From: Vermamoeba vermiformis
Lineage: Eukaryota
Reading direction: 5' to 3'
Length of the DNA stretch: 64,000 nt
NCBI GenBank assembly: GCA_045837725.1
Contig: JBEWZL010000030.1
Location: forward strand, 310,001 to 374,000
The notes under the pieces are model-generated. The model worked only from the letters and a program-made list of their open reading frames with translations. It was not told where the DNA came from and did not search any database. This document shows, piece after piece, positions 12,550 to 58,369 of this stretch (its first letter is position 1; every line of letters begins with the position of its first letter). A program made the position numbers and the translations under genes.

Positions 12550-12610
12550 GCGCATCTGCTGCGCTCATTTACTCTAACAAACTTTCATCAAACAATACCA
12601 CATATAAACA

Positions 12611-21713: not shown

Positions 21714-21916
21714 TTAGCCATCGTGGATCGGAAATGGAATGTTAATATCTTAATTTTAACGTGTAAATAGCTTTACTTATGAAAGGAACAATGAATTTAA
21801 ACCTTTTCGTTCTACCAGTCCATCCCGATCAATCTGCGTCTGGGACGTTTACCAAAAAAGGTTGAATAATTTTCGGTTATTTTATTTCTTAAATTCTGCT
21901 TTAACAACAACAAGAC

Positions 21917-24341
21917 ATGGCGTACTTAACAGCTATGTTGGGCATGTATTGCCCCACAGAAGAAGACTTTGCGAGTCCCACGCCTGAAGAGTTGGCGGCA
22001 ATAGCTAAACAACAACAGGAGCTCGAAGAGCGAAAAAAGCATTCTCTTTTGGGCTCAGACCACTTTAACTTTCTAGCACGACCTGAGAGCTCTGGAGGTG
22101 GAGGTAGAGTGAAGTTAAATTTATTTTGATTTTTTTAAATTTAATTACCCCAATAAGCATCATCATTTGCGGCTCTAGCAATTCGTTGTATTTTAATTAT
22201 TGAACTAACGGTTTCGTCTTTAGCTTCTGGCGTTAAAATCGTACGTGATCAAGCTGGTGTTCTTTACTTTATGAATACTAAATCGTGGCCGTTTCACTAT
22301 CAATTCTGTGTCACGTTTTTGAACGAAAAAAGGTGAGTTCAGCCGATCTGTCTGGAATTCTAAATCTAGAGTTGCCCTAAAAAAAGTACTTTTTTGTTAG
22401 GACTCTAGAAGCCTTTAACGAGCAAGTGTATACTGGAAAAGATCGATCGATGATGTTTGCAACCATTGTTGCTTATCCGAGCGCTGACAGTGGAAAGATT
22501 TACTGTTTGGAACTTAATCCGGCTGATCCAATGGTTCCTGACCTAGCAAAGATCAATGACTTCTTTGGCCAAGTCAAAAAAGAGTTTATGGTCGATCATA
22601 TTGAAAGGCCAGTCTTATACTTCCACCCAACATCAACATCTCAGATCGAGGCCATACAAAACAAAAAACTGCTCCGTTCCCGTAATCCACTCCTCGGAGA
22701 TTTTCGGAAATATTCCGTATAAAGTCGGGCAGCAAGGCCTAGTGACGAACAAATACGTGGCTGTGTTTGACAACAAAAACTACACTCAAGAGGAACTGCA
22801 GGCTTGGCTCAATCTCCGCACCACGGAAGAAATCGTAGTTATTCCGTCGGTCCCGAACGACATTCCAGCCGTCGGTGGTGTCATTTGCAACGATGTTATT
22901 CCGCCTTTATGCCACGTGGCGTTGTTGTGTCAGAACCGAAAGACACCGTATTGCTACTACAAAAATGCAACCGAACAGTTGAAGAAAATACAGAATTTAG
23001 TAGTCAGCGGCGTCATTGCTAATAATGGATTTCATCTTGACGGCAGAAGTAAAGGCTCTAAAGCCGAATCAGATCCGGTACAACCGATATCTATTCCAGC
23101 TGCTGACACGATCACCACGCAATTCATCGAGCTAGATTCGTTCAAGGCGTCTGACACACGCGTTGTAGGCGCCAAAGGTGCACAGCTAGCGAAAGTTGAT
23201 GCGATTTATAGACAACCAATCTTCGCAGGAACGTTCATCATACCGTTCCATCACTACAACAACCACGTGAACAAAAACCAAGCACTTCTAAAAGAACACT
23301 TGCACCCGCTTCTTAGCAAGCTTGGTACTCTTACTAATGTCAATTCGAGATCACCGGAGGCAATCAAGAGCAACGCATTCGACTACAACAAGTTTTCCAC
23401 TCTTGTGGAGAAGATAGTCCAAGCGCCAGTTGACGGCGAGCTAGTGCAGAGTGTGATCGATAGAATAGTGCAAAACAAATGGACTTCAGTCATCTTGCGC
23501 AGCTCAACAAATGCTGAAGATCTAACTGGATTCAACGGCGCTGGCTTGTACGAGTCCGTGCCGTTGAGTGGGGACGACGTGACTAATCCTGAGAAGATTG
23601 CCCATGCTTTGAAGACGGTGTGGGCTAGTGTCTGGAGTCCCAAGTAGGTTACTTCCTCTCAATACTTTGACTTTATCGGCTGACCCTGTATCTTCGTAGG
23701 GCTGTTAAAGAGCGACATTATTACAAAATGGTGCACCTTAAAGTACAAATGGCAGTGATCGTGCAGCCGTATATTAACGACAAACTTTCTGACTTGAAAG
23801 TGCTCATGAACGGAGTTTGCATAACACATGATGTCGCACGACACAAAGTCAAACACGGCTTCGTTGTACACACGTAAGACAGTGCTGTCTAATTGTACGC
23901 CTCTAATATCTTGCTAGTTTCCCTGGAAATGAATACAAAGTGACCAATCATTACAAAGAAGCTACGCCAGAAAGTGTCACGTTGCTTTTGAATCGTCAAA
24001 AATCTTCCGTGGACATGCTCTTGAACTCGCTGTGCAACAAAAGTGCGGGTCCGTTACTGACGCAAGCCGATGCCGTGAATCTTGTGGACGTCTTTGGCAA
24101 ACTTCACAACTTAATGCTGGCCTCGCAGCACTCTATGCACAACACTCAAGCACTGGACATTGAGTTCTTGATCATCGACAACAAGGCGACAAACACCAAT
24201 CGCGAGTTAGTGGTCCTTCAAGCACGTCCTTATCAAGTCAATGTGGCACCAGCGGGCGTTGATTATGATGCCAAACTGGAGCGTGCTTGGTTGAGCTTCT
24301 CAACTTTTCACAGCCTGATCGGTTGCTTTAAGTACCATTAA
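21917..24341 (+). CDS. PEP/pyruvate-binding (PPDK_N, ATP-grasp) domain protein of bacterial type; apparent homopolymer frameshift at ~22665
   Basis: LCHVALLCQNRKTP, VGAKGAQLA, FIIPFHHY, ILRSSTNAEDLTGFNGAGLYES, KTVWASVWS, MAVIVQ, MNGVCIT and LDIEF...VLQARP. Confidence 0.75.
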
Positions 24342-32820: not shown

Positions 32821-35800
32821 CTAGTACGGCGGGAATAACACGTTCGCAAGCAAATTATCGCTAAATTGTTCTGACTTGGCGGGACTCTTTGACTTTGCAG
32901 TTCCTTTCGGCGTACCGCTCGTCGGCTTGTTCGCGTAGAACTTATCGATCTTGGTCTTTTCCTTTTTAGGCAATGGTGTCGCTTTCAACTTCTGCTGAGG
33001 ATCGCGTTGCATTTCCCACACTCGCGGGTGTTTCTTGTAAATAGCTTGGTAATAAGAGGTCACCAGATCCACGAGCTGTCGGTCAAGGGACACCACGGAT
33101 TGAGTTTCCATTTTTGGCTCGTCTTTCATCAGATTCATGATCGGCGTGTCAAGCGAAATAAGTGTCAACGTGTCACTTTGCAAGAACTTCTTTTCCAAAT
33201 AAGGAAAGTCCACTGAGCCGTCAGCCTTGACGCCAATGTTGCAATAGAACGGCAAATACACGTAAACAAATACGTATAACAGCGCCCTATTCTGCGGCAT
33301 GAGGTAGCAATAATAGTTCAACATGTCTTCGAGATACTGCTGCGGGAACGGGTACTTGACACTAGAGATCTTCTGGTACAGTTCACTGAAGTGCGATAAT
33401 TGTTGCAAAGTCATTTGATCTTTGGATCCGTACTTGAAAACGAGCGAAATTTCGTTAGGCTTAGTTTTGATATCCACCGCCTTCAATCCTTGAGGCAAGA
33501 CTAGGCTACTATTGTTATTGTCTTGAGGCTTCATCACTACCAGCTTGAAATCGTCTTGTGCGAGTGCGGTGAAGATGTGCTTTGACGGCACTAAGTAGCT
33601 CTTTTGCAGGTCTCGAATGAAAATATTCAAAGTTTTGAACTCGTACACGCTGTCAGTGTCCACGGGAACATTCTTCCTCGTTGATTTTTTTGCCGCAGTA
33701 GGTGTTTTAGCACTTTCTTCGGCTAATTCATCAAGGTCTTCATCGCTTTCAAATTTCTTTGCAGAAGTTTTTGCCACTTTGGGCGTTGGCTTTGACGCTT
33801 TTCCTTTTTTGGTTGTCTGTGCCTTGGTGACGGTCGGAGATTTCAGTTTAAGTTGTATTTTTGGCATTTCTTCTTCGTCCGTAGATACATCTTCCTCGTC
33901 CTCTTCGTCTTCTTCGTCTTCAGAGTAAGAATCAAATTTTGATTTTTCCTTCATCGCACTACCAGGGGAGGCTTTTTTCTTCGCGGCCTTTGCGTCAGCA
34001 CGCTTAGCTCGTTTTTCAAGTTGGTCCCAAGTCTCGGCTTCTTCGTCGTCGTCATCCTCTTCCTCGAGCTCCTCGTCAGATCCGCCAAACAAGTTCTCGT
34101 ACCTGCGTGGATCAGCAACTTGAAGTGATGGTTACTATGAACGTACCACTCATATATGATTTCTAATGTCTCTGTTAAGTGCTCCTCGACCATCACAAAA
34201 AATTGAAGAGCGTGATATAAAATGTGGTACTCGGCACTCTTCTTTTCAATGCCGTTTTTCTGGATGTGGTAAGCGATTTCTAATTCTTCACGTTGGAACG
34301 CGTAAGCTCTATAACTAGATTAGTATTGCCTATAAACGCACTTATTATCGTTGAACTTACCGTCGCAGAAACAAATCTTCAACTTCTTGCAGCAAGGCCT
34401 CGAACATGTCTTCCAATGTACTCTGCAAAATGGATTATTATAAGAGCAATATATACAATATGGACGTACTTGATATGACACACAGTCTACAGTATCGTCA
34501 GTACGCGCAGATGTCGCAAAGTGGCGGATGCGGTTGATGTCTTCGGTGAGCCTGTTGAACAGCTTGGCTTGATCAGCCACCGAGTAGAACGCGCCAGTAG
34601 CGTCCGCTAAATAAGGTAATTAGATTTGTGCATGGCAGGACCTTTGTTCTTACCTTCCAGACGTTGGCGTCCTCGGATCTTGAAGATCATCTGTACAACC
34701 CTGATCCGCGTTAGAAAACATCGAGCGAGGCAGAAAATTAGTAGCTACGTACTCTATAACGGCGCTGTAAACATTCTCGTTTTCAATCTGCAAGAGCTCG
34801 TCATCGAGGAGACTGTTCAGAAGGGTCGAATCCTCCAAAAACATATTTTCGCTGATATATTGCACTGCTTGTTCAACGCCCTTAAAATAATCATCCTTTA
34901 CGGACTAAAAAGAAACAGCGTTAGCACTCTGCTGCATACATGCTGTAACGTAGTAAAAAATAAAAAAGGTATTGCATCGGAAGGGATTCGAACCCTTGCA
35001 TCCGAAGATATTGGAGCCTTAATCCAACCCCTTAGACCAACTCGGGCACCGATGCGATCGTTGATTTTGGGTCGCTCGAAAAACAGGGTGTCGTCCCTAA
35101 GACAAAGAACTGCTGCTTACCTGTATGACAAATTGGTTCTTGAACCATTCTATGTCCTTCTCGGCATCTTGCTCTTTCAAAAACTTCTTCACCTTGTCCT
35201 CCACTTCCTTTTGAATGGTAGCTAACTCTTCTTCGGTCAATACAACCTCTTCTATTGGCTTGTCATCTGTAACGCTCACGTTGGATTTCTCTTGTTTTTT
35301 CTTTTGTACGAGCTTATCATGCGTCTTCTTGCGATATAGATTAACTTCTTGTCTAATTTGTTCGAGCGGGTTGTACTTCTGTGGTGTCTTGACTTGTCGT
35401 CGCGTGCCAGTTTCTAAAATCTTGCGTGCCTCTTTGACGACATTGTTGTCCTCGTTCAACAAGTCGCCGACTTCTGTATCTATAATAAGGTTAGCGCTAT
35501 TGAGGCATATATAATAGTAGCTCATACCCGGCACAGTCCCAGTCCTCAAGAACTCTTGTAGTGCGTGCAAGGTATTGGTGCTGAACGATTCCAAATCGAT
35601 TTCAATCTCATCTCCTTGTTGGATCTTCTCGAACTTTGCGACAATTTCAAGAATAGTAGGCAATTTATCAATGTCTATGTTTGAAATCTTCGCAACAAGC
35701 TCCTGCTTGTCCTCGAAACTGAACGCCACTAGCGAAGTGGGGTCAGTCGTCTCGGGTGGCTCAACAGCCTCATCACTATCCTCCTCGTCGTCTGTATCCA

Positions 35801-36291: not shown

Positions 36292-39200
36292 ATGGCCTCA
36301 ACAAGAAGCGCCCTAAGAGCTCTCAAGCGAGTTAATAATATTACTGCACGAAGGGCAAATAAGACTCCGTCATCCCTCTTTGACAGGAGCTCTATTCTCG
36401 AAGCCAAAACAGCGATCAAGATCTTGTCAGCAAATGGCTTGCTCAACTCCGAAAAAATTCAAAAACAATTTTTGCACACTATAAATATTGGTACGTATTA
36501 TTATACATCAGGTGCTTTGCTAAAAGACTGCAAGTTAATAATTTTAATTTTGAAAACCAAGATCTCGATTATTCTAACATTCTTGCATCATTCCAGAGCA
36601 TGGAAATAATTTCAAAAGCTTTTTGGAATCATACATTTTAAAATCAACATCAAAAGACGAAAACAAAGGTAAGCCGATCGAATGAATTCAGTAATGATTT
36701 TTGGCGCTTTTCAACGTGGCTTTTCCGAAGGATATTGTGCATTATTTTTTCTGCTATATTGTTTATGTCGATCTTATTCTTGGAGCAGATAAAGCACCAG
36801 AACAGCCACAATCCGGATCAGGTGCCAAAACCCAGCAAGAAAGCACAACCAATACACAAAACGAAACTAATACCAACACATCGTCCGAAACCAAGACAAA
36901 TACTGAAAACACGGAAAATAAAGACAAAGCTAATGAAGAGAACAAACAAAACGAAGGTGAAAATAACACGAACACTCAAAACGCCGAACAACCACAAACA
37001 GAGTACAAACCTCCTTTCCCGCCCGTTCAACCTTTATCTCCTTTCTTCTTTGCCCTAACAGCGGTTGTACTGTTTATTTACTTGTACACGTTCTTTGGTA
37101 TCAATGGTAAGTCCTCTCAAGTACTCGTGTCGCAACGGCTCTAACAGATTGGTACAGACGATAATATCAACGAGTTTTTGGAATTATCTCAAACTGCTGG
37201 CCCTGTAGAACGCTCTGAGGCTCTTATGAAGTTCAAGCGATACCTAACTTATGACCGTAAGTCTGAAGTTACCGTTACAACCTCGAAAATTGACACTTGT
37301 CATCGTAGGATTTGGCGTCAAGCTATCTCGTCGTCTCGAGCACACTGACTTTGTTAATGTCGTTCTTGACGCTTGCTGTGCTCGTGAAAAGATTGTCCGC
37401 GATGCTGCTTTCGAAGTGTTGTGCGAATTGACCAAGCACGGTACGTCACTTTGTGGATCTGTTGTTGGCTGTTACTGACATTATTATCAAGATACCCTTC
37501 GTATTAAGGCCGTAGATGCCGATGTGTTGTCGATTATCCGCAAGAATATGGATAGAGACAATTTGTATGCCCTGTTCTCCCTCGCAAACATCGCTAAGGA
37601 CGGTACGGATGTGCTGATCTGTTTCAACACACAGTAAGACTAATCGTGCACGTGTAGTAAAAGGAGCTGACCTCATCGCCCAAGACAAGTACATCGTGCA
37701 AGAGATGTTGATGTTCTTAGAGTACTCGTTCACTCCCAAACTTCCTGCCAGAACTCGATTTTTGCAACGCGCTCTTTTGATTACCCTTGGCCGCATTACT
37801 AAAAAGAGTAAGTAATGTCACCACGTACCATATAGGTTAGTGCTTATTTGTTTATTTGCTTAGAGGAAAATGTCGAACTGTTGATGAAATACCAACTTCG
37901 TCGCGGACAACTGCAAGATATTGTTCTTTCTTCTGGTTACCGTCGAGATCCCGTCATTTTGCACCACTTGACGCTCAAAGTTATGCCTGCCTTCATTAAC
38001 AACGCACCTGATGAATTTCAGAATCTCAAGTAAGTTAAAAATAGATCGGATCTTGTCTGCGGTCAAGAGGATCAGGATTGAGGGACGTGTGGCGGGAAGT
38101 GCTGTTCTTTCTTGCTAGTGGCAAGTAGTGACCCGAACACGATGTTCCAAAACGTCTCGGGCACGACCACACTAACAAGAATGCACCGCTTCCCGTCCGA
38201 TCAGCGAAGTTAAGCTTGTTCAGGCCTTCTTAGTACTGGGGTAGGAGACTACCTGGGAATCGGAGGTGTTGTGCTCTTTACTTTTTGCTTTTTGGGTCGC
38301 TAATTAACGCCTCTTTTTACTGGCCTGTAATATTATTTTCGCTAGATCGACAAATATTTTTTAACTGCGATCCAAATCCGAGCTCGATATGTGTTGCTAT
38401 GTGAGCGAACAGTCTAACTAACGGTCTCCTCTTTTAGACGTGCCCTGGAAGGACAAGGTATTAACTTGAACCGCGAGTCGTTCTTCACCCCGAAGATCGT
38501 CGGCTACATCCACTCCTCAATTCTCATTGGTCTCAGTGGCTACACTTATGCTACTCTAAAGGGCTTCGTACGTAACTTTACTATTCATAGCCTCGTCCCT
38601 AACAAATAGCAATTAGTGGCAAACGAGAAAGCATATGCCGTTGGATGCGGACAAACACGCATGGCTAAGACGCGCTTGGACTCGCTCACCACTCGTTGCG
38701 ATTGGTCTGTTCGCGTACCCTATCGTAATGTCGCATATCCTCGGTAGTATCTCAAATACTGTACGTATCAACTGGCGAGCTGAAATTTTGGATGCGCATC
38801 CACGCCGATTCAAAATATCGTAAACCTTCTCGTATTAATATGCCTATCTTAGCTTGAAATGAAGACGAATAATGAAGTCCGAGCTGTTTCTGCCGGTTAT
38901 TTGACAGCCATCCCGTTGATTTTCTACGCGCTCAAGTTCGGTCCGTACAGCATTGGCCCTAGCTTCTTGCGTCTTGAGTACCACGAAGACTGCCCGCCGT
39001 ATTACTGGAAATACTGGGAACAGCTCAAGTAAGACCTAAGACCTATTAAGCGAATACAATTACCCGTAAAGACTGGGCGAAACACTTTTCCGATCGATCC
39101 GGATGCTCTCCCTATACCTCGTGGATTAAGGAGACTCACATTTAGAAATCATACATCGCGTTATTATTCACATTAGTGAACCAATACTGACCTGTATCTC

Positions 39201-40856: not shown

Positions 40857-43800
40857 TTACAATAACTGCTCAGTGTCGTCTTTTCCTTTCTTCTTTTTAT
40901 CATCGGTTGCTCCAATGCGCTTCGGCTCCTCACCATACTTGGCAATAATTGAGTCCAAGATCTGATCCATGCGTGACTTGACTTCATCGTCTTCAATTTC
41001 AGCAATGTTCTCGCGCATTTTGTGATCGTTGCGAATAATAAATTCGTGAAGTTCGGCAAGGGCATTCAAACGCACTTCTTCAGGGACTTCGAGTGCGCGA
41101 TGTGTGCCGGGGGTACCAAGCTTTGACCAGTTCTAAAGCAAGTTAATATGTGCACTTTTGTTACAACGAAAGCCTTACCAATAGCTCGCCATAGAAGCCT
41201 TTCACCTTGGGAATATTTTTGTTGACGAAATCAGTCAATTCGAGCATAAATGACTCCTTTGTCACAGTTGCCATATTAGCTACGTGTTGCAAAACTTTTG
41301 CAATCAATACGAGTTGTCGTTGACACCGTTGATTGGGTGGTGCTGCGATATGAAGCATTAATAACACAGCAGAAATGTTGCTGGAAGTGCGTACCTTGAG
41401 TTAAGCCGTACGCATGAGGCACAGTGATGGACGGACCAATAAAGCGCAAGAATAAGAACCCTCCGACTGCTTTAAACACAGCCTCTTCGCTTCCAAATTT
41501 GGACATAATGGTGGCTTGCATGCGAGTGAAAATTCGTCGGAATTCACTAGGCACACGTCCCTCGGCGTTGATGATGACAGTGATAATGCGCTGACACGTC
41601 AGAGCCAATTGTAGGGCATTGGCATCTTTGTCAGCGAGGCCTTCTTCCATCTTGTTCGGATCCATCTACCACGAGTCGGTTAAACCATCGACCTTGATCG
41701 TTCATATACTACGTACCTCCATGTCTACGTTTAACATCGACACGCCGCTTCGACGTGCGGCCTCTTTGTCTGCCTCGGGCTCTTTAGTAATGGCCTCAAG
41801 TTCGTTGATGACACGAGCTAACATGTCAAAAAGGTACTTGATGCCAACGACCTTCGAGTAAAATTTGAACATTTTGCTCGCCATATTATCCGTACGGAAG
41901 ATCGTATTCTCTGAAGCTATGGATGTGTTATTATATGCGCTTATCATAGGCTATCGGTGTTACTTACAAGCACGCAAAATTTCAACTGAAGCGAAGTACT
42001 CAATCAACTCCGCGGCAGTGTTGTGATGGTGCGCGAGAAAGACCAACGATCGAGCGACCATATCGAGCTCCGTGGACGCAGTGCAGTTGATGAGAATGGA
42101 CACAAACGTTCTATCCCTATTCATCATAATGTCTTCAAGAGTCCTACATCAACCCGTCAATACGGATCCAAGTGTCAAATCGTTTTTCATACCTGTATTT
42201 ATCGTCGTTGTTAATTCGATATTTCATCACGAGCTCTTTGCCGAATGCAACTTCGTTGTAGTCAGGCTCGGTAAGCTCCACTAACAATCCTTTCTTCTTA
42301 TTCTTGTAGCGAGAGAAGAGCACGCCGAAAAGTACCGCTGGAGGAATAGTCAGTTAGATAATGAAATCTTGGGCTTGATTAAGGGACTAGATTTTACCTC
42401 CAATTGCGACAGCACCACCGAGAGCAATGCCCAGCGCTAGTGGCAGAGTGTTATCAGGCTGCGGGGAAGACGGTGAAAGAGGTACCACGCATACATCTGG
42501 CGAGAACTTGATGCAAATTGTGGTGTCGAAACAATTGCAGTCGAGCGAATTTTCAGTGAAATCACACACGGATGGCTTACGCGCGAAGGCCGGGGTGCAG
42601 CCACTAAGTCGTTGTTAGTATCAATATATACTCAAAAACTATTCTTTGGACGTACTTGAATTTGTTTTGGGCCGCTATCAGTGTCTTCAACGTCGCGTTA
42701 GGAAAGTTAGGAATTGCGCCTTCAAACTGATTGTCGCCGAAATTAACGTCCGTCAACGCCTGCAGTTCACTGAACTCGCGCGGGATTGTTCCGGTGAAGT
42801 TATTGTCAGCAAAGCTTACGACAGCAAGTGAGGTCAAGCCACCCAATTCGGGCGGCAATGTGCCACTCAGCTTGTTGCCAGTCAATGTGAAAGTTTGCAG
42901 TAAATTGAGTTTTCCTAGGCTCGGAGGTAGTGTGCCAGTCAAAAGGTTCTTTTCCATAATCAGCACGATCAGTGGCAAGTTGCCAATGTCACTCGGGATG
43001 GTGCCTTCGAATCGATTATTCTCCATAGAGATCTGTTGTAGCTTGGGCAATTGCGTCCATTCGTTGGGAATTGTGCCGCTGAACTCGTTACTGCCGATGA
43101 GCAAGAACTGCAAATTGACCAAGTTGGAAATATCCGGGAATGTCCCCGTGATAAGGTTGCCGGTCAAATACAAATTGTTCAATTGCTTTAAATTGTTGAG
43201 CGGTGGCAATGTGCCTTCGAGCCTGTTGGCAGCCAAGGCCAGCACCGTTAACTTGCTCAAGTTGTTGATCGAAGCCGGGATCGATCCTTCGAGCAAGTTG
43301 TTGGTAAGGTACAACTGTTCTAATATGGCCAAATTGCCGATCGAGTCTGGAATTGAGCCACTAAAGCCATTAAGATGTGCGAAGAAATATCGCAAGGCCG
43401 TCAGTTGACCAATTTCTGCTGGAATAGTTCCATAGAACTGGTTCTGGTACAGCTGAAAGTTTGACATTCGCTGAGCTTGTCCAATGAGCGGCGACAACGT
43501 GCCCGTGAAGCGGTTGTTGGAAAGAGTAAGGGTCGACATCCGCTGAAGACCAAACAGTGATTCGGGGACGGTGCCCGAGAAGAGATTGTTGTGAAAGTAC
43601 GCTATCTCTAGCACTCCCAATTCTCCTATCGTTGCAGGAATGCTGCCTGAGAGCTGATTGTCGAACACTTGAAGAATTCTCAGGCGCGTGAGGTTGCCAA
43701 TACTTTCGGAGATCGTGCCTTCGAGCTTGTTTCCGGAGATAATAAGGTTGATCAAGCTATTCAAGCTCCATAGACTCTCGGGGAAAGTACCGGTCAGCTG

Positions 43801-44818
43801 ATTGGTAAACAACTGAAAATCCGTCAGTTTGGTGAGCTGGCCAATGCACTCCGGGATCGGACCTTCGAGGCGATTGCTGAACAAATAGAGATAGGATAAG
43901 GACTTGACGGAGCATATTGAGTCGGGGATAGTGCCTGATATGTCGTTGTTGCCTATATGAATCAATAGCAAGTTGTTGAGCTGGCCAATGGAATCCGGGA
44001 TCGAGCCAGTCATATAGTTGCTGTAGAGTTGAAGATTGTATAGCGTGGTCATGTTGCCAATGCACGATGGAATACTGCCAGTAAGACTATTACTGAAGGC
44101 CAAGAAGTTCCAAAGCTTGCTCAAGTTGCAGATCGAATCTGGAAGCGATCCGCTCAAGCCGTTTGAAGCAAGATTGATGTCTATCAAGTTCGCTAGTTGT
44201 CCAATAGAAGAAGGAATTGTTCCAGAGAGCGTATTTGAAGAAAAATAGATGCGTTGCAAGGCGGTCATTTGTCCAAAGTCGGGTAGCGAGCCAGTCAAAA
44301 AGTTACTCTCGAAATGTACTTCTATCGCTGTCTTCAAATTTGACACCGTTGAGGGAATCGTTCCAGAAAGCATATTGTTGCCAAAATTAACTAGCGTCAC
44401 AGATGTCAAGTTTCCGATCGAATCTGGAATTGAACCTCGTCCAAGGATATTGGCCATATTCAGCGAATCTATATGCTGGGTATCTGCTGTACAACCAAGC
44501 CCTAAATTGAATCAGTTAGATTATTTACGGATGTCGTTACGAACTATAAATTGATTAAATCAAAAATAGAATAAAAAAAACAAATAATTAATATAAATTA
44601 GATTAGGCTGTAATCCTAAATGTAGATTAATATGGTATACCTTGCCAAGGAGGACATGGATTTGCTCCTAACGTATTTAGCTGCCAACTGACAGGACGGT
44701 CAATTATTGAATTGTATAAGTCCGTCAAAAAGGCTTGTTCTGCTGGGACGAGTACTGCATCTGCGAGCCACAACACTGTCAGGAGTGACAAGCAAAACTT
44801 TAACGAGAAGGCGCGCAT
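40857..44818 (-). CDS. Receptor-like LRR - transmembrane - RasGAP protein
   Basis: Signal peptide, about two dozen 24-aa LxGxIP-type LRRs (42655-44500), TM helix LPLALGIALGGAVAIGAVLFGVLF, and RasGAP motifs IFRTDNMASK, FLFLRFIGPSI and LIAKVLQHVAN. The LRR-to-TM-to-GAP splice junctions were checked and are in frame. Confidence 0.85.
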
Positions 44819-48629: not shown

Positions 48630-51118
48630 TTATTCTTCGCGGAAAGTCATCCAATCGAAGTTCCAAGTGTCTGGCTGACCTGCGTGAGGAATACCAGCGC
48701 AGTTAGGATTTTGACTCCAAACGAACACGGGCTATTTGCGTATTAGGATTAGTTCCTTGTTATATCGCTATATATAACTGTTCCTTACTTGTTGGTCGTG
48801 AGTAGGACCACTTTGAGCGATGTAAGCAAAGTCTTTGAACATGACTTGATCTGTTACTTTGACGTCAAGAGCACCACCGCAGTACACGCTATAAATAGAA
48901 TCATATTATGACATTGCACAATATTAGTGATTGATTCGCCCTTACTTAGGATTCGAGGGTTGCTCTAAATCGAATCTGCTGGCGATCTGGTTACCAGGGT
49001 CACCCTATCATTTTGCATGAGTAAGGCACGAAAATACGATTCTATCATTGATTATCATACCAATGCGAGAGGGTCGTGTTGCCAGTTGTTGTAGCGCATG
49101 ATCTTCTTCATGGCGCTCAAATCAGCAACTTTGTGTTGGTCTCTTCTGAACACATTGGCACGAGGAGCAGTCTCGTAGAACAAAGTAGGATCTTTCTTAG
49201 CAGCATCAGGATCTACGTTTAACGTTAATACTATGCAATACATCTATGCTAGTGTTACTTACAGCCAGAGATGTCGAAGATCTTGGGGAAGAAAGGAATG
49301 TTGTAGCTGGGCCAGTAACCGAGGGCCAAGTAGCGAGTGACATCAGCTGATTCAGTCATACTACAGTAACGGACATTAGTAACACGTCTTCATATGATTT
49401 GTTGCGTCGACCATACCCAGGGATTTGTTCGAGGATCCACAAAGCACCGTCATGCAAGGGCTTCTTAGGAGTGAACTTCTTGTAGTCAACGACGATCCAT
49501 TGGTTGTTGTAACTAAATAAACATGAGCAACTCATTATAAAGTTGTTACTACTTACGTTCCACTGTTTTCACGAGCATAGATCTCAACCCATTCTTTTCC
49601 GTTCTTGGCCATACGGTTCGCGACCATAACACGGAAAGTAGTGAAGATCGATTGAGGCTTAACCAAGTCCCACAAAGTATCGTTCATAATGTCGTTGGTT
49701 GTTTCCATAACCGTCAGACCACTAAACATAATATTAGATTGCCGTCAAGCGACACTCGTGTTTTGAACTTACCTGTCAGTGATGTAGAAGTCGTCTGAAG
49801 AGCTAAGAGTGGCGGGATAAGACGAGAACGAGACCTTGAAGGAGGTAGTCGAGGGGTCGTTCAAAGGGAAGTCGTACACTTTGAGCATCCGGTTCATAGT
49901 AGCGTAGTCGTACCAAGTGGTGTGAGCTGTCAATGCGTATTAACATTAAGCCCCTTAACATTACACGGGCCATGAATTGACTTACAGGCATAAAGGGAGG
50001 ACAAATCACTGGTAACTTTAACCAAGGAAGAGCAGTGGTCACGCTTGGTGATGTAAGCCTTCAATTCAGCAGGGCTCATGCTGCCAACATTAGGGCGCCA
50101 AGAGGCATCGACGACGTTCACAAGGTCTGTCCAGACTACTATTAGAACGTCCTGACATCGGCAACAAACCGTCCTTACCGCTCACGTCAGGCATGAAACA
50201 CATCAAGTACAATTGGTTCCAGGTGAACACAGGCTTGCCTCCGGCTTGAGTGGTAGCGTAGACATAACCAGCGTAGATACCCTCTAATTGAGTCAAGACG
50301 TAGCCGACCTATTCATTGCCATAGTTAATAAAAATAAAGGCAGAGATCCGTCGTGACACGAAGATTCGTACTTGTCTCCAGTAAGGGTCCTGTCTGTTGT
50401 TCTTGACTTGGTTGCGAATCCACTTCTCTTGAGTATCACAGAAAGCACCAGCCTTCTTCATGAATTCCTAAACAAAGGTTGGATAAGATTTGTTTTTCAA
50501 ATCTGCGTTCGCAGTAGAACGTACTTGGTAGGTAACTCCATCAGGTAATGAAGATTGGAACAAATACTGAATTTGGCTGTAATACACATTGATTTGAGGA
50601 ACGGTCATAGCACCTAAATAATAAATGTCAAAATATAAAATCGGGTAATAAGCGATTATTGATTTTCTCGCTACAAAAATCATATCTATTACCTTCAACA
50701 AATCCTGCAGCGTAAACTTGCTTGGGATCTTCATAAGCAAAAGAGCTGTGGACGTAAAGACGATCCCAACCGGTCAAATTCATCTCATTATGGAAAATAC
50801 CCCATGCAACTACGATTAAAAATTATTATTTACATATTAGTTAATTACGAAGCAAAATTTGGTTGGATCCGCTTATGAAAAATAAAACAACCAGACCGGA
50901 AAATTCTGAACGACTAATCAAAAGAACTTACCACCCTTTTCGGTATCTAGAACTCCAGGAACATAAATGTACTCGCCATCCTTAAGAAAGACGGTCCCCT
51001 GATCGGCCAAGCTTTAAAAGAGTTAGATTTCGTGTTTCGCTCATCCCGCGTTAGATAGCGCATACCTAATGCCAAAGCAAGTGGCTAAGAGGACAAACAA
51101 GGCCAAAGCAGGCTTCAT
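48630..51118 (-). CDS. Phospholipase B-like protein (PLBD/LAMA family)
   Basis: Signal peptide. Motifs [70 protein letters not shown] and SGPTHDQQ. Confidence 0.92.
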
Positions 51119-51605
51119 TTGTGCTCGACTCAATTTATAAAATAAACAAATCATTTTTGGATCATTGTTTCTTTTGCTTGAACCAAACAGGTCACGCAAG
51201 CTTGATCATCCTAAATCTATTACAACCCTTCATTTAAATATGATAATCCTCGATTAACTGAAACAAAAACCTTCTTGAATGAAACGACGTTGGCTTAGAA
51301 GTGGTTTTGGTATTAGAAAAGGGGTGTAATGCGTAGGGAACGTAAATGTAAGCCTTTGGTATGCATGGATAGAGCTTTTCATTGGAACTCAATCGTTCCC
51401 AATGCGCACGTAAGCATCTGGAATTCAGATCAAAAATAAAACTTTCGGAATTCTGCCTTATCCCAAGCTTTTAACAACGTCGGATGGCAAAAATAGACGT
51501 AGCGATTTATAATAGACCAATCGTAAATTACCCGAGCTCAGATGCGCTTGTTTTTTCGTGGCCACGTGATTTTGCACCAATCGAGAAGCTTTTGGTTGGA
51601 GATTT

Positions 51606-51642
51606 TCAGGTCAATTTTTTGGTGACCGGCACCGTGTAAAAA
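51606..51642 (+). repeat. Left bipartite inverted repeat: TCAGGTCAAT-N15-ACCGTGTAAAAA
   Basis: 51606-51615 and 51631-51642 are exact reverse complements of 56106-56115 and 56080-56091. Confidence 0.75.
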
Positions 51643-51829
51643 GCAATTGGTACCGTTCTTTTGAAATTTCGCTCGATAAATTTATCCACTACCGCTGCCT
51701 GGTTATTTCCCGGTTTAATAATTCTAAGAAGTGGGCCTGTTGCCCAATAAATTTTGCTGTTACTACGATACCATCTCACCACCACCAACGGCATTAATTT
51801 ATTTATTATTTATTACATCTAGCAAAAAA

Positions 51830-53923
51830 ATGACACAGATCAACGACACTGATCAGCGTGAGCGCCTAAAGGTTTTATATGACCAATATATGTTTACTCC
51901 AGGTGCCACTTGTAATAGTGAACGAAAAAACGGACCTTCTAAGCACATCGAGTGGATCGTCAATTTCGTGGAAAGGCAACAGCAAACCTATTTACCTAGG
52001 TATGTTTGTTCGCACAATACTGGAAAAATTAAACATTAAAGTTGCCTTGTAGTGCTGAACCAGAGCTGGGTGTCAATGACACGCAAGTTGCAGATGCGCC
52101 TAGCACAGATCCACTGGTGCCTCGCCCAAAGAAAACCCTAAGGACCTTGTGCAATTTGTGTGCAATGGAAAGAGCAAGCAGACGAAAAAAGCGAAATAGA
52201 CGAAATAGAATCCATCCGTGGCCAAAAATTATTTCAAAAAGGCACCGCATCCGTAGAATTGAGAGCATTATGCTAGATATTAATGGAAAGTTGAACAAGC
52301 GATGGAAGACTAACTTGTCGGAATTATTTTCTGTTGCCAGTAAAGAGGATCGCCCACGCATCGAAGCTTTCATCCAGCAAATTAACGATGGAGAATACTG
52401 GAAGGAAGAAAAACAAAAAATTGAAGAACAATTGACAGAAAAATTACGAAAGGACCCTGAACGAGTCTTGATTGCAAAAGATGAAGGCTTAATATCAGAT
52501 CACGTTTATTGGCAATTTATCAAAGAATTAGAATTGCACAATTTAATGCCTTCAATTACAATTATCAAAAATATCAGACAAAAATGGAACAAATACGTAG
52601 TTGATAAATTACATCTAACAAAAATGACAAATTTACCGGAGGGCTATTCTGGCTATCAATTGAACATCAAGGCTGTAGTTGAACTTATCTTATCAATGGT
52701 CATGCTATTTGGTTCAGGCCAGCCTGATGATGAATTAGAGTTCAAAGTTTCCATGGATGGCCATTGGATGAACGGCAAAAAAGAGATCTTGGTTGGTTTA
52801 ATTCCCATGAATATGGGATTTGTGGTAGGTGTGCTTTCTATTGAGTAACTAGTGAGTTGATTATATTTTTTTTGGCCAGGTGCAGAACGAATACACAATT
52901 TTCCCGATCGCTCTTTTCGAGGGCGAGGAAAAGTTTGATTTTTTAAAAACTGTTCTACATGACATAACAACAAGTTTGAATCAATTGCAAATTGAAGGCT
53001 TGGAATGGAAAGACAGAAAATTTGGAGTTAAAACGATTGTTGTTGTTGATCTGGCTGGATTGTGGTCGATAACTCCTTTAGAATGTGACTATAAACAACC
53101 AGAGCTGAACAAGCAATTTTGCCCGCATTGCACAGCAACTTGTGGAACAGCATATGTCTTTGAACCAGATGGCTTGGTAGAGAAACGACAAACACTGGAT
53201 GAGGCTTTGCTTGGATGCGAGCCAAAAAATCGAAGAATTTGTCCACGTTAAACAACTCGTCACAAGGTTTGGCAAGAACTACATTGCAAGATATGGCAGC
53301 AGAAAAGTTACACCGTACATCCACTTAATTTGTGCCCACCTTGTGGATTTATTGCGAGAACATGGCTCTATTGGACGTTATTCATTAGAGGGCTTTGAAG
53401 CCCATCATAAGTTTCACCGCCGCATCTTTCAGCGCTCAACTTCTCATCGTGGATGTCGCTCTAAAATTTCCAGTATTCTGCAGATCCTGCAACGAATTTA
53501 TCGCTTAATGTTGCTTCGAATCGATCTCAATGTCCCACCAGAGCACGGTGTAACGTTTCCAAAACTCTACAAGTTTGCAAAACAAACACCACAGTAAGAA
53601 CACAAATCAACTTTCGATATCGTAAATAATATATTTATTAATAAATATTTATTAGGTTTGGTCCGCGAAAGACTATTACTAGAAAAGACGTTAAGTGGAT
53701 CAATCCAGATGAAAAACAAAATACTGCCGTTAACAATGTGCAAGAGCCATTAAATGGTGAAATTGCTGAGCCTGTAGTCACAGTGATGTTAATGGAAATT
53801 GAGACAATGCCAACCCAACAAATTGATACAAATATGGATGAGGATCAATCGTGGATTCCGGAAGTTTTCGGAACTGTGTGGCCCACTGACCACACCAGCT
53901 ATGAGCCAATCATACCCGAATAA
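51830..53923 (+). pseudogene. RAG1/Transib-like DDE transposase, spliced, with an internal deletion and frameshift at ~53245
   Basis: Introns 52000-52052, 52825-52879 and 53594-53655 all splice in frame. Motifs FKVSMDG, IVVVDLAG, FCPHCTAT and VTPYIHLICAH...HGSIGRYSLEGFEAHHK. Premature TAA at 53249-53251. Confidence 0.8.
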
Positions 53924-53998
53924 GAGGGTGCACAGTGCTTTGTTTTACGTAATAAAATAACTCATTCAAAATTTCAATCGATTTTTTTATTATCAACG

Positions 53999-55058
53999 AT
54001 GGCGAAGCGAAAGAAACGTGTATATCCATTATTGCGATATAACTTGCCACTAGCATTATACAACCTATTATGGGACAAGCAAAAGGCAACTACAAAACGG
54101 CGATCTGCGAAAACAAAAAAACAACAAAGAAGATATTTTAAAATAATAGAAGTGAATTTTGATAGAGCAACTGTTAAAGAATTAGCAACACGCGATAAAG
54201 TAACAGAATGGGTGCAAAAAAATATTTTAGCTGATGACGAATACATTTACTTTAACCAAGATGTAACACTTGTAGACAAACAAATGCGAGCAGATCGCTA
54301 CACCGTTGAACAACGCATGATAGCTAAATTTTTGAAAGACAGAATACCAGATAATTTATTATTGATTTTGGAAGCTGCCGCAATTAAATTTGAGGAGGAG
54401 ATCGCAAAAGAAGAAAAGAATACAAATGAACGAGGAGAGATCACAAAATTTACATTTCACTTAGGTTGTTGGGCTCGTTTTAATGAAAGCGAGTACGCAA
54501 TCACTACATCCGAAACAGTGGCAGGAATTAATTTTCTCACTGCGTGCACAGAGGTTTTTGCAGAGGTAACATGCGTATATGCATTATTTTTAGATTAGTA
54601 AATGTAATTTTATTTTATTTTAAAGGTCGACCGCATCTTACGAGTCAATGCACCCTCCACTTATTCGACTCTAGTCCGCGCAAATCAACAATGGCCGACC
54701 AATTTGAGCCCGTGCAAAAGCTACAAATCAATTGCATTGAATTTGGACGGCAAATCGAAGTTTCATCTGGATCATTTGGACTATTTTGATGGTAGGCGGC
54801 AACAGAACTGCAATCTTAATAACCAAACGGTCATTTATAGGATACTGTCTTGTTATACCATTTGGAAAGTTTACTGGTGGTGATCTTGCCTTTCCACAGA
54901 TCAGCACAGCTCTTCAAGCGAAGCGAGGCGATGTGGTGTTATTCCATTCAGCGCAACTAGTGCATGGTAACTTGGATAATATAGGTGGCAATCGTCGCTC
55001 GATAGTATTTTTTACTCATGATGTATTAGTACGACCGTACATCAAAGTTACCAAATAG
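53999..55058 (+). CDS. TET/JBP-family 2OG-Fe(II) dioxygenase, ~316 aa, 3 exons
   Basis: Introns 54566-54625 and 54792-54840. Spliced core SIALN...KFHLDHLDYFDGYCLVIPFGKFTGGDLAF...RGDVVLFHSAQLVHGN...GNRRSIVFFTH (HxD...H...R). Basic N-terminus. Confidence 0.8.
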
Positions 55059-55433
55059 TTCGATCTGAAAAATTGATCTCCAAAGTTTGCAGCTCGTTCT
55101 TTATTACAAACCATCATCAACCAATAAAAAACACATTAAAATGCTTCGCAAGAACCATATTTTTAACTATGCATAACTAATTGTATTACAGCCACTGTCA
55201 TCAATTTAAATCTGCGGTTGAATCCACAGTAGCACTTTTTCATCACACCACGAGTATGAAATTAAGAATATAATATATACGTGGGTAAGCGTAGTTATTG
55301 TGATATCATTTAGCACGGTGAGACTTTTGAATATTTGTAAGTGTGGTTTTTCATCGCGGATCACCGAAGAAAAGAGCTTGATCTTCGCTTTAACATAAAT
55401 TTATTTATTAAAATACTTTAAATTTGTAATACA

Positions 55434-55982
55434 CTATATTCTATTTCCTTTAAATTGTCCATCGATAATATTTCCTCGCCATTTATCAACTTTGAACTGA
55501 ATCGTGATCTCCTGTGCGTGCCAGTTATATTTGAGAATAAATGGGACCCTCCAGTTCACTGCTGTCATTAATAATGAGAAATCACTATCAAATCCTACAC
55601 AACCGGCTTCAAGAGTTGGTAAAAAGTTTCTGATCGCGGCTGTGTCGAAGCATTTGTATGTGGTAATCAGCATGTAGTCCGTGTTAAAAATTCTTCTGCG
55701 ATTTTTTTGAAGGGTGTAGGTTATGTTGTTCTGTAAGCTCTTACTGAGGGGTACGTGGAGGATGCGTTTGAAGATCGTGGTAAGCAGGCCATCTTTAACT
55801 TTCAGCTGAGAAACAAGTGAATCTGGATGCATAGCCGCAGAAATAAATGCATCGAGACGAATGGAGGCATCCTCTTCCTCGTAGGTTCTCCCCTCAATTT
55901 TGATCACGGGGATTTGGTCAACATATTGTTTTAATTGCGCTAATCGATCTGCCTTTAATCTCCGAAGTTGTCTTGCATCCAT
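55434..55982 (-). CDS. Orphan intronless 182-aa ORF inside the putative transposon
   Basis: ATG-initiated open frame with AAAATG context. CCAAT and TATAAATA lie upstream on the minus strand (~56035-56049), and AATAAA lies downstream (~55403-55408). Confidence 0.65.
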   Translation of the reverse strand: MDARQLRRLKADRLAQLKQYVDQIPVIKIEGRTYEEEDASIRLDAFISAAMHPDSLVSQLKVKDGLLTTIFKRILHVPLSKSLQNNITYTLQKNRRRIFNTDYMLITTYKCFDTAAIRNFLPTLEAGCVGFDSDFSLLMTAVNWRVPFILKYNWHAQEITIQFKVDKWRGNIIDGQFKGNRI

Positions 55983-56079
55983 TTTAAATATATATACGCT
56001 TGAGCTGTGGTATTCATTATGGCTGGTGTGCGTTTATTTATAGGATTGGTCCGCAGAATTTTTTGGCCGGTTTTTTTCG

Positions 56080-56115
56080 TTTTTACACGGTTCTACGGGC
56101 GGACGATTGACCTGA
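56080..56115 (-). repeat. Right bipartite inverted repeat: TCAGGTCAAT-N14-ACCGTGTAAAAA (minus strand)
   Basis: Reverse complement of the two blocks at 51606-51642; the spacer sequence is unrelated. Confidence 0.75.
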
Positions 56116-56216
56116 CCACGTGTTTTTTTGGCTCCCAAGACAGCAGACAAACAAAAAGGGGCTTGTTTTCGATCTCGCAACGAACGAAACACATCCAAGC
56201 TAAGCTTTTTTAAATC

Positions 56217-58369
56217 ATGTCTTTGGTCACTAAATACACCGTTCAATCCCCGAACGTCCAAGTCACCGACGAGGCTATTGTATCCAACTACACCTACAAC
56301 TTTACCAAGGTCCAAACTAACGGTAATGACGTCGTTGCTACTCCCGTCGACAAGAAGTACACCTTCAAGGTTGACCGTAAAGTCCCAAAGCTTGGGTAAG
56401 CCGACATCCGCAGTTCACGTAATAACTTTTGGGACGCTAATCCTCTATTTCCAGCTTGATGATCGTTGGTCTTGGTGGTAACAACGGTTCTACTATCACT
56501 GCTGGTATCATTGCCAACAGAGAGTAAGCCCGAAAAACGAAATATTCGCTTTCGCGTTACGCGATCTGACACTTGGATGATTCAGGGGTATCACTTGGAG
56601 AACCAAGAAGGGTGTTCAAACTCCTAACTACTGGGGCTCTGTTACTCAAGCCTCTACTCTTCGTTTGGGTGAGGATCAAAACGGAGAAGAGATCTTCGTT
56701 CCTTTGAAGAACGTTTTGCCCATGGTACGCACATTTGAACAATTAGGCCACGAATTTAATAATATGACGGGGTTTCTAATGATTACCAATTGAAAAATAT
56801 CTTCGTGTTTTTGGATTTATTATTTGCTTTGCCGGTTCTAGAACCTTTTCCTGGTCTATTTATAACCTAAATATTATTCTATTATGCTCTTATTAACGAT
56901 CTATGGCGTTAGGTTGAACCCAACGATCTTGTCATCGGCGGATGGGACATTAACAACGCTGATTTGGCTGAGGCTATGCAACGCGCTGAAGTCCTCGAAT
57001 GGGACCTTCAACGTCAATTGATCCCCTACATGAAGAAATACAAGCCTCTTCCTTCCATCTACATCCCCGATTTTATTGCTGCCAACCAAGCCGACCGTGC
57101 CAACAACGTTATTGATGCTAAGACTAAGAAGGAGATGGTCGAGCACATCAGACAAGATATCAAGGTAATGTTCCGAAAATAACTCCAACCATTCTTTTAA
57201 TGTTGCAGGACCGGATCTTCGAAACAAAAAAATGACACGTGTCATTGATAAATCAGCGTTATAATATAATTCAATAATAGAACAAATACGAGAAAATATA
57301 GATTATGCCCAGATTAATTTTTAATTACGATTCACTAAAAAATTCGTTTCTTTACTAACCGAAAGTTGCTATTTAGAAATTCAAAGAAGAGAACCAAGTC
57401 GACAAGATTGTTGTTGTCTGGTCCGCCAACACTGAACGCTTTGCTGATGTTCGCGCTGGTTTGAACGACACCGCCGACAACTTGCTCGCTGCTGTTGAGC
57501 GCGACGAGAGCGAAATTAGCCCTTCTACTTTGTTCGCCATTGCTTGCATCTTGGAAGGCGTTCCTTACATCAACGGTTCTCCTCAAAACACCTTTGTTCC
57601 TGGAGCCATCGAATTGGCTGAGCGCCACAATGTTATGATTGGTGGTGATGACTTCAAATCCGGACAAACCAAGGTTAAGTCCGTCATGGTCGACTTCTTG
57701 ATTTCTGCTGGTTTGAAGCCCGTTTCCATTGTTAGCTACAACCACTTGGGTAACAATGACGGCAAGAACTTGTCTGCTGAGAAACAATTCAGATCTAAGG
57801 AGATCAGCAAATCCAACGTTGTCGATGATATGGTTGCTTCCAACCAAATCTTGTACCAACCTGGTGACCACCCCGACCACTGCGTCGTCATCAAGTACAT
57901 TCCTTACGTCGGTGACAGCAAGAGAGCTATGGACGAATACATCAGCAAGATCTTCTTGGGCGGCGAGAACACCGTCGTCATGCACAACACTTGCGAGGAC
58001 TCTCTTTTGGCCTCTCCCCTCATCCTCGACTTGGCTTTGCTCGCTGAGTTGATGACTCGTATTACTTACAAGACTGGTATGTATTGAAGTGTCTCGTGCG
58101 ATCCAGAACTTTTATTAACGTATCTGCAATATATAGAGGGTAGCGAGGAATGGGACACTTTCCACCCTGTTCTCTCCGTGTTGAGCTACTTGTTGAAGGC
58201 TCCCAACACTCCTCCTGGCACTCCCATCGTCAACGCTCTCTTCAAGCAAAAGGCTTGCATCGAAAACATCTTCCGTGCTTGCGTTGGTTTGCCCGCCGAG
58301 AACCACATGACTTTGGAGCACAAGCTCATGAAGGAAGTTCAAGCCCGAAAGACCTTCTTGAGGAATTAA
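56217..58369 (+). CDS. INO1: myo-inositol-1-phosphate synthase
   Basis: [61 protein letters not shown] and [12 protein letters not shown]. Confidence 0.97.

Follow-up and report, generated by a model that had tools for sequence, protein, structure and literature searches.

The stretch of Vermamoeba vermiformis DNA considered here (64,000 nucleotides of contig JBEWZL010000030.1, positions 310,001 to 374,000, called the window in the following) carries a gene at positions 53999-55058 that resembles those for Tet dioxygenases and lies just downstream of a gene for a transposase. Two questions are raised by this locus: what kind of enzyme does the Tet-like gene encode, and is it a gene of the host or a part of a mobile element? 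The answer that we consider likely is that this is a three-exon gene for an Fe(II)/2-oxoglutarate dioxygenase of the TET/JBP family, similar to NgTet1 from Naegleria, and that it travels as cargo on a cut-and-paste transposon, young and 4.5 kb long, that encodes a RAG1-like transposase. This answer is built on the structure of the gene, on its metal-binding and base-pocket residues, on the inverted-repeat ends of the element, on an empty allele and on further, near-identical copies. An earlier reading of the locus, made from the sequence alone (the sequence-only reading), had recognized the enzyme; that its gene is the cargo of a transposon was not spelled out there and is new.

Gene structure and family assignment of the Tet-like protein

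The gene is composed of the following parts.

53999-54565, plus strand: exon 1 of the Tet-like gene, 567 nucleotides (nt), residues 1-189, with the start codon ATG at 53999-54001
54566-54625, plus strand: intron 1, 60 nt, GTAACA..AAAG
54626-54791, plus strand: exon 2, 166 nt, residues 190-245, holding H236-x-D238 and D241
54792-54840, plus strand: intron 2, 49 nt, GTAGGC..ATAG, which shifts the frame
54841-55058, plus strand: exon 3, 218 nt including the stop codon TAG (55056-55058), residues 245-316

When the two GT-AG introns are removed, a continuous frame of 951 nt results that encodes 316 amino acids (aa), in agreement with the product of about 316 aa and the 166-nt middle exon with the HxD motif that the sequence-only reading had proposed. 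Since intron 1, when read unspliced, contains three in-frame stops and since exon 3 lies in a different frame, the entire protein is visible only after splicing, again as claimed before. Exon 1 encodes an N-terminus rich in lysine and arginine (17 of the first 50 residues) and a conserved ITKxTFHxGxW block. The motifs quoted earlier are all present in the spliced product and occur in the order given: HLDHLD (residues 236-241) is encoded in exon 2 and is followed by FGKF (252-255), RGDVV (273-277), LVHGN (284-288), GGNRR (293-297) and VFFTH (300-304). With H286, R296, V300, F302 and H304, exon 3 contributes several residues of note, and the protein has a complete metal triad, H236, D238 and H286, the latter 50 residues after H236, as well as the later arginine R296. 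An HxD...H triad is described as the conserved core of TET/JBP proteins (PMC12730594).

How well is this particular pair of introns supported? There is no single GT..AG intron that opens the Tet-like frame, and no fewer than 162 pairs of bare GT..AG introns of 30-150 nt do so, which speaks against relying on the model for this property; an open frame by itself is weak evidence. The chosen pair is singled out because it retains every motif, because both introns open with GTA, a feature shared by the three clean introns of the transposase gene and by all six RNA-verified host introns in the same 8 kb, because the intron sizes of 60 and 49 nt are near the short class of host introns (57-62 nt), and because the register of residues shared with NgTet1 crosses the junction of exons 2 and 3 without a gap. 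The end of exon 1 is also marked by a relative. An exhaustive search with exon 1 yielded two matches, one of which, P0001 (166 aa, E 4.4e-7, 30% identity), is its sole true relative; it is the only member of its cluster and comes from a Logan contig of 1726 nt. The likeness of P0001 to exon 1 stops precisely where exon 1 ends, and the next residue is a valine, as in an unspliced GTN donor. The second match, P0002 (882 aa), is repetitive and alike only in the stretch rich in lysine and arginine, and was discarded as a chance match. An alternative 5' splice site at 54575, 9 nt further on, is possible and would likewise stay in frame (319 aa). Exon 1 had no relative among the 90% clusters, nor had exon 3 among longer proteins, and no full-length relative of the Tet-like protein was found in the searches with these two exons.

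For the assignment to a family, Pfam was searched with the separate exon products. The top match of exon 3 is Tet_JBP (PF12851; E 1.9e-4, 21.2 bits, profile positions 108-163 of 164), followed by 2OG-FeII_Oxy_3 (2OG, 2-oxoglutarate; E 3.3e-3, 2.4 bits behind) and PhyH (E 0.1). Since Tet_JBP outranks both of these families, the best profile match does not point to a 2OG oxygenase with a substrate other than nucleic acid, and the earlier assignment to the TET/JBP dioxygenases stands. It is further supported by the register shared with NgTet1 and by a feature search of the Atlas with exon 3, in which 23 of the 30 nearest named clusters carry Tet_JBP. The top score in this search is 0.92, with 199 of 256 features in common; the first cluster consists mostly of Basidiomycota, and in two of the clusters listed Tet_JBP is found on 15% and 11% of the members. 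This neighbourhood is a lead rather than a test. Exon 1 did not retrieve a useful neighbour in the Atlas (scores <= 0.78), and a complex prediction in which the three exon products were treated as separate chains reached a score of 0.01, which counts neither for nor against the assignment.

Other outcomes of these searches weigh against it. The Tet_JBP profile, which the sequence-only reading had proposed as a check, gives the top match but not a formal one, as the 21.2 bits obtained with exon 3 alone are below the Pfam gathering cut-off of 34.9. Neither exon 1 nor exon 2 has a Pfam match, and the two read as one through intron 1 (P0003, with X at the stops) have none at E up to 10 either; when exon 3 and exons 1-2 were compared with the Protein Data Bank (PDB) by phmmer, also at E up to 10, no Tet chain was listed. 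A generic 2OG-Fe(II) oxygenase whose substrate is a protein or a small molecule, and which is Tet-like only in its jelly-roll core, would fit these outcomes as well as the small distance of 2OG-FeII_Oxy_3 from the top match, the sole PHROGs match of exon 3, which is with a general '2OG-Fe(II) oxygenase' family (E 8.7e-4), and the best PDB matches of exon 3, namely a leucine hydroxylase along with a putative oxygenase (E 0.4-0.8); NCBIfam gave no match for this exon. We nevertheless regard such an enzyme as quite improbable, given that D241, V300, F302 and H304 all stand in the register of NgTet1, that the 23 Tet_JBP clusters in the Atlas search face one 2OG-FeII_Oxy_3 cluster at 0.82, and that the setting of the gene in a transposon matches that of known TET genes. 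Judged by its sequence, the protein very probably belongs to the TET/JBP enzymes, and among them to the small ones that resemble NgTet1, with formal family membership below the curated threshold.

The mobile element around the gene

The Tet-like gene is enclosed by an element with the following features.

51607-56114, no strand assigned: whole mobile element, 4508 bp, GC content 0.383
51607-51615, plus strand: left terminal inverted repeat CAGGTCAAT, 9 bp, with a 5'-CA end, the reverse complement of 56106-56114
56106-56114, plus strand: right terminal inverted repeat ATTGACCTG, 9 bp, with a ..TG-3' end
51631-51642, plus strand: left subterminal 12-mer ACCGTGTAAAAA, 15 nt inside the terminal 9-mer, found by alignment of both ends
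56080-56091, minus strand: right subterminal copy of the 12-mer ACCGTGTAAAAA, 14 nt inside the terminal 9-mer
51830-53923, plus strand: gene for a RAG1-like transposase of the CMCT clade, ending 75 bases upstream of the Tet-like gene
52000-52052, 52825-52879 and 53594-53655, plus strand: clean introns of the transposase gene, 53, 55 and 62 nt
55434-55982, minus strand: third open reading frame (ORF), 182 aa, running inward from the element's right end

The boundaries of the element are documented by contigs of a DNA sequencing run, X2, that were placed on positions 50300-58300. One of them (word depth 233) joins 51608 to 56115 with a single T in between and skips 4506 nt. The Tet-like gene, the transposase gene and the third ORF are all missing from this empty allele, whose edges fall on the inverted repeats. 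Other contigs have loose ends at 51607 and 56114, where they run into unrelated DNA. Word depth is about 300-670 in the flanking bins and 723-904 in the bins of the element, where depth is not to be equated with copy number, and the listed X2 pieces covering 52168-56114 differ from the window in 17 of 3881 letters. We read the X2 data as one empty allele and a few further, near-identical copies. As the listed pieces are so similar and the insertion is still polymorphic, the element is young; its three genes form a single unit of 4508 bp that is mobile or was so until very recently.

Could the Tet-like gene instead belong to the host and be a mere neighbour of a transposase gene, outside any mobile unit? 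A self-BLAST of the 64-kb window revealed one copy of the element and no second one, and a target-site duplication was not found, which would both be compatible with this possibility. It appears extremely remote in view of the loss of all three genes together in the empty allele, with edges on the inverted repeats, and of the other contigs that leave the element at the same two places. Two metagenome scans, with an alignment (A1) and with P0004, a relative of the transposase, found no locus and hence no second element.

The ends of the element read CA..TG and carry perfect 9-bp inverted repeats; CA..TG ends are also found in the CMCT clade (PMC12730594). Both ends have two parts, a 9-mer and an A-rich 12-mer separated by spacers of 15 or 14 nt that are unlike each other, an arrangement which recalls the heptamer-spacer-nonamer structure of Transib ends and recombination signals. 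Transib proper, with its CACWGTG-like ends and 5-bp duplication, was considered as the carrier and rejected: the ends of the present element read CAGGTCA, there is no CACWRTG site at either of its termini and no 5-bp duplication. Across the window, 28 CACWRTG sites are present, compared with 31 expected. An inverted repeat formed by 50878-50908 and 56054-56084 was likewise dropped, one of its arms being located outside the element.

The transposase itself is linked to RAG1 by several lines of evidence. It matches the Pfam family RAG1 with an E value of 5.4e-5 and 21.9 bits (cut-off 25), and 15 RAG1 sequences in the PDB match it (E 2.4e-4 to 1.7e-3) over the stretch that contains the RAG1 motif SEGNES. 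At the position of SEGNES, the transposase has LEGFEA; we take the SEGNES stretch to be the site of the catalytic residue E962 in RAG1. The transposase reading frames furthermore carry CPHC and HLICAH, which correspond to C(2)C and H(4)H motifs, and C(2)C and H(3-4)H motifs are named for the CMCT clade (PMC12730594). Relatives of the large transposase exon were found in P0004 and P0005 (44% and 49% identity, E 3.3e-56 and 5.4e-44), and the likeness of both ends at the same exon end. For the product of the third ORF, no match better than E 0.1 was obtained in Pfam, PHROGs or NCBIfam.

Two properties of the insertion do not fit easily with an active cut-and-paste transposon. The first is that no target-site duplication of 2-5 bp is visible, where a single insertion was seen whole. 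The flanks read ..GATTTT and ACCACG.., and the empty allele has GATTTT-CAT-ACCACG, that is CAT in the place of the element, which may be an excision footprint or an allelic difference. The second is that the transposase frame shifts by one base within 53181-53251 and that a convincing intron is missing there: twelve weak intron candidates exist in this interval, none of them with host-like signals. The X2 contigs listed break at 53230/53232, just after a run of six A residues, so copies of the transposase gene may differ at this place. With such a break in its frame, the transposase of the copy in the window may be damaged, and this copy may not be able to move by itself.

Comparison with NgTet1, expression and surroundings

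What would the enzyme do? Four residues with published functions in NgTet1 provide the basis for an answer. In NgTet1, F295 is the stacking residue, H297 contacts N3, V293 lines the pocket and D234 contacts N4 of cytosine and thereby sets the preference for C5-modified cytosines, whereas mammalian Tets have an asparagine at the position of D234 (PMC4678852). D241, V300, F302 and H304 correspond to NgTet1 D234, V293, F295 and H297 at a constant offset of +7, which is a register and not a computed alignment. Both proteins are small single-domain enzymes (NgTet1 structures: PDB 4LT5, 5CG8/9; PMC4678852).

The parallel to NgTet1 that the sequence-only reading had drawn is thus borne out for the four base-pocket residues. 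The same offset would place H236, D238 and H286 on positions 229, 231 and 279, which we assume to be the metal ligands of NgTet1, although our literature search did not confirm this, and with its 316 aa the protein is close to the presumed 321 aa of NgTet1. The parallel fails in other respects: as reported above, phmmer did not list an NgTet1 chain, the N-terminal half of the protein is without detectable likeness to NgTet1, and, unlike NgTet1, the protein is encoded by a gene with two introns that sits in a transposon. R224 of NgTet1, the arginine which forms a pair with 2-oxoglutarate and is stacked onto the base, corresponds to G231 here, which speaks against a complete correspondence. K232 and K234 adjoin this glycine, and an indel upstream of HxD may displace the counterpart of R224.

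In the mechanism that we propose, both introns are presumably removed, and the N-terminus rich in lysine and arginine would take the enzyme to the nucleus, a location that the sequence-only reading had likewise suggested and with which the high content of basic residues is consistent. The HxD...H triad is predicted to bind Fe(II), and R296 to bind 2-oxoglutarate. A flipped modified base would stack on F302, be read by H304 and D241, and then be oxidized. This base would most likely be 5-methylcytosine (5mC) rather than thymine, because an aspartate is present at the position that gives NgTet1 its preference for cytosine. The element, and perhaps nearby DNA, may in this way be kept free of silencing methylation. 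Removal of methylation from the own element has been proposed for the TET-bearing transposons of fungi (PMC12730594) and for the CMD1-bearing elements of Chlamydomonas (bioRxiv 10.1101/2022.06.16.496473).

The sequence-only reading held that the substrate is not legible from the sequence, and this remains largely true, with D241 adding a weak hint at cytosine. A TET/JBP enzyme that acts not on 5mC but on thymine, forming 5-hydroxymethyluracil in the manner of JBP, or on N6-methyladenine (6mA), as does CcTET (PMC12730594, section 3.4), has to be weighed against this hint. NgTet1 itself acts on thymine to a small extent (PMC4678852), and the observed/expected ratio of CpG amounts to 1.0 within the element and to 1.0-1.07 on either side of it, so that there is no trace of a heavy CpG methylation that would have to be undone, a finding that argues against CpG methylation being of great importance here. 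In addition to D241 at the position of NgTet1 D234, which favours cytosine, the positions that are relevant for 6mA and 5mC in CcTET, Gly331 and Asp337 (5 and 11 residues after the first histidine), are, by counting, occupied by aspartate and cysteine here. Considering both sides, we judge a thymine- or 6mA-directed enzyme unlikely.

A gene with an open frame is not necessarily used. Two RNA runs, X10 and X12, carry the same coded species name, and their strain differs from the window by about 5%. Between 51368 and 56173, RNA depth exceeds zero in three of 18 bins in X10 and in two of 18 in X12; over 53771-55105 both runs have zero depth in four of five bins and do not exceed 0.13 in the remaining one, which is unfavourable to a functioning gene, and among the runs examined no read spans either junction of the Tet-like gene. 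The neighbouring downstream gene reaches a depth of 81-1321, with spliced joints visible. Most reads of X10 and X12 differ from the window by 1-10%, so the strain may lack the element, and for this reason the silence is weak evidence. A gene for myo-inositol-1-phosphate synthase at 56174-58300 is highly expressed in both RNA runs; many fixed differences in the reads from this interval, most of which are 90-99% alike, indicate that the RNA stems from a clearly different strain. Over the third ORF, a patch at 55373-55639 is covered at a depth of 1-2 in both runs, with fixed differences at 55577, 55578 and 55584.

Another run, X5, goes by a different coded name and is near-identical to the window. 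Since the neighbouring gene is represented in it by a spliced contig, X5 is RNA-like. X5 contains pieces of the last transposase exon, of exon 3 of the Tet-like gene (54860-55047, 188 nt, depth 4) and of the third ORF, all at a depth of 3-4, and none spans a junction. The search of sequencing runs listed no RNA run that holds the gene. Three runs from freshwater and soil metagenomes (X7-X9) had shares of 0.06-0.07, which have no bearing on habitat.

It follows from these data that the word 'intact', used for the gene in the sequence-only reading, is justified for an open frame with its catalytic residues and is not extended to expression by the RNA reads. The gene could be a silent or decaying passenger, with an intact frame that is not spliced or expressed as modelled, in a copy of the element that is disabled. 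The near-absence of RNA, the lack of junction-spanning reads, the 162 alternative open joins and the break in the transposase frame would all be accommodated by this scenario; we assign it a low probability, since all catalytic and base-pocket residues are kept, the element is young (17 differences in 3881 letters and a polymorphic insertion), the strain that provided the RNA may not possess it, and the RNA-like run X5 contains the piece of exon 3.

Apart from the element, the window contains a lone 5S rRNA gene (38159-38277, plus strand, 104.7 bits) that lies among protein genes and away from any rDNA unit, and a gene for tRNA-Leu(AAG) (34973-35055, minus strand). An unusual open frame of 635 aa (42607-44511, minus strand; LRR_1, E 1e-45) consists nearly completely of leucine-rich repeats with SGxIP/TGxIP, which we take to be of the plant type; this frame may give a hint at the lineage, for which scans of the other genes with Rfam, tRNA and Pfam models yielded no marker. 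The region 20001-22000 has a strongly A-rich strand (AT skew 0.338) and long open frames on both strands without a Pfam match. A catalase gene (12608-14292, plus strand) is divided between two overlapping frames, and an intron near 13160-13270 is the presumed cause.

Relation to known TET-bearing transposons

TET/JBP genes on transposons have been described in Agaricomycetes, Pucciniomycetes and Pezizomycetes, including the RAG1-like ESTA elements (PMC12730594), and, in the case of Chlamydomonas, TET/JBP genes including CMD1 are located inside DNA-1_cRei and Helitron2 (bioRxiv 10.1101/2022.06.16.496473). Which of these does the transposon from V. vermiformis resemble? With regard to the enzyme, a similarity is seen with AG-type TET domains of Kyakuja/Zisupton elements from Agaricomycetes, which are near CcTET and are also transposon cargo (PMC12730594, Table S1). 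By eye, they share H-x-D-x-x-D, G-K-[YF]-T-x-G-x-L, V-[FL], L-x-H, G-G-x-R-x-x-I and a C-terminal F-x-H in this order, and the AG-type TET domain of Zisupton-1_AuCo agrees motif by motif with the stretch from H236 to H304 in a comparison that was likewise made by eye and not computed. The carrier there belongs to the KDZ superfamily, unlike the RAG1-like carrier found here, and CcTET deviates at the two positions discussed above.

With regard to the carrier, ESTA from Puccinia, a TET-bearing EnSpm-like element (Kojima 2025, PMC12730594), is similar: its transposase is RAG1-like and has the C(2)C and H(3-4)H motifs, its ends are CA..TG, and it bears TET/JBP cargo. Differences are evident at the ends. 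ESTA makes TA target duplications, whereas the bases beside the ends of the present element are TT and AC and do not form such a duplication, and the terminus of ESTA-1_PGr begins with CACCACAG compared with CAGGTCAAT here. The rust elements moreover encode PU-type TET domains, whose sequences in Table S1 look unlike the protein described here. The CMD1 elements of Chlamydomonas provide a precedent for TET/JBP genes on DNA transposons outside fungi. DNA-1_cRei differs in that it is 18.4 kb long, has 67-bp inverted repeats and 8-bp duplications and lacks a recognizable transposase, and CMD1 differs in that it makes 5-glyceryl-methylcytosine (5gmC) with vitamin C.

The principle and the RAG1-like type of carrier are already in print, and the element described here is a clean, young and apparently complete further example. 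Among the matches listed in a literature search, we found no case outside fungi in which a RAG1- or Transib-like element carries a gene of the NgTet1 type; the slashed spelling 'TET/JBP' may escape the query. It is conceivable, although rather doubtful, that we are dealing with a still-active RAG1-like transposon that brings its own NgTet1-type 5mC oxidase and occurs outside the three fungal classes with TET-bearing transposons. If this were true, RAG1-like transposases would have become linked with DNA demethylation on more than one occasion, and free-standing small Tet genes of protists, such as those of Naegleria, would have begun as transposon cargo or would still be just that.

A demethylating enzyme carried by the element itself is a proposed route by which mobile DNA escapes silencing based on methylation, and most of the transposons of this kind documented so far come from mushrooms, rusts, truffles and Chlamydomonas. 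The present example, which is small, apparently complete and was mobile recently, allows the idea to be tested on a short protein and an element of 4.5 kb. Its enzyme is NgTet1-like and thus of one of the structurally best-understood Tet types, and the example contributes a data point on the origin of the small Tet genes of protists.

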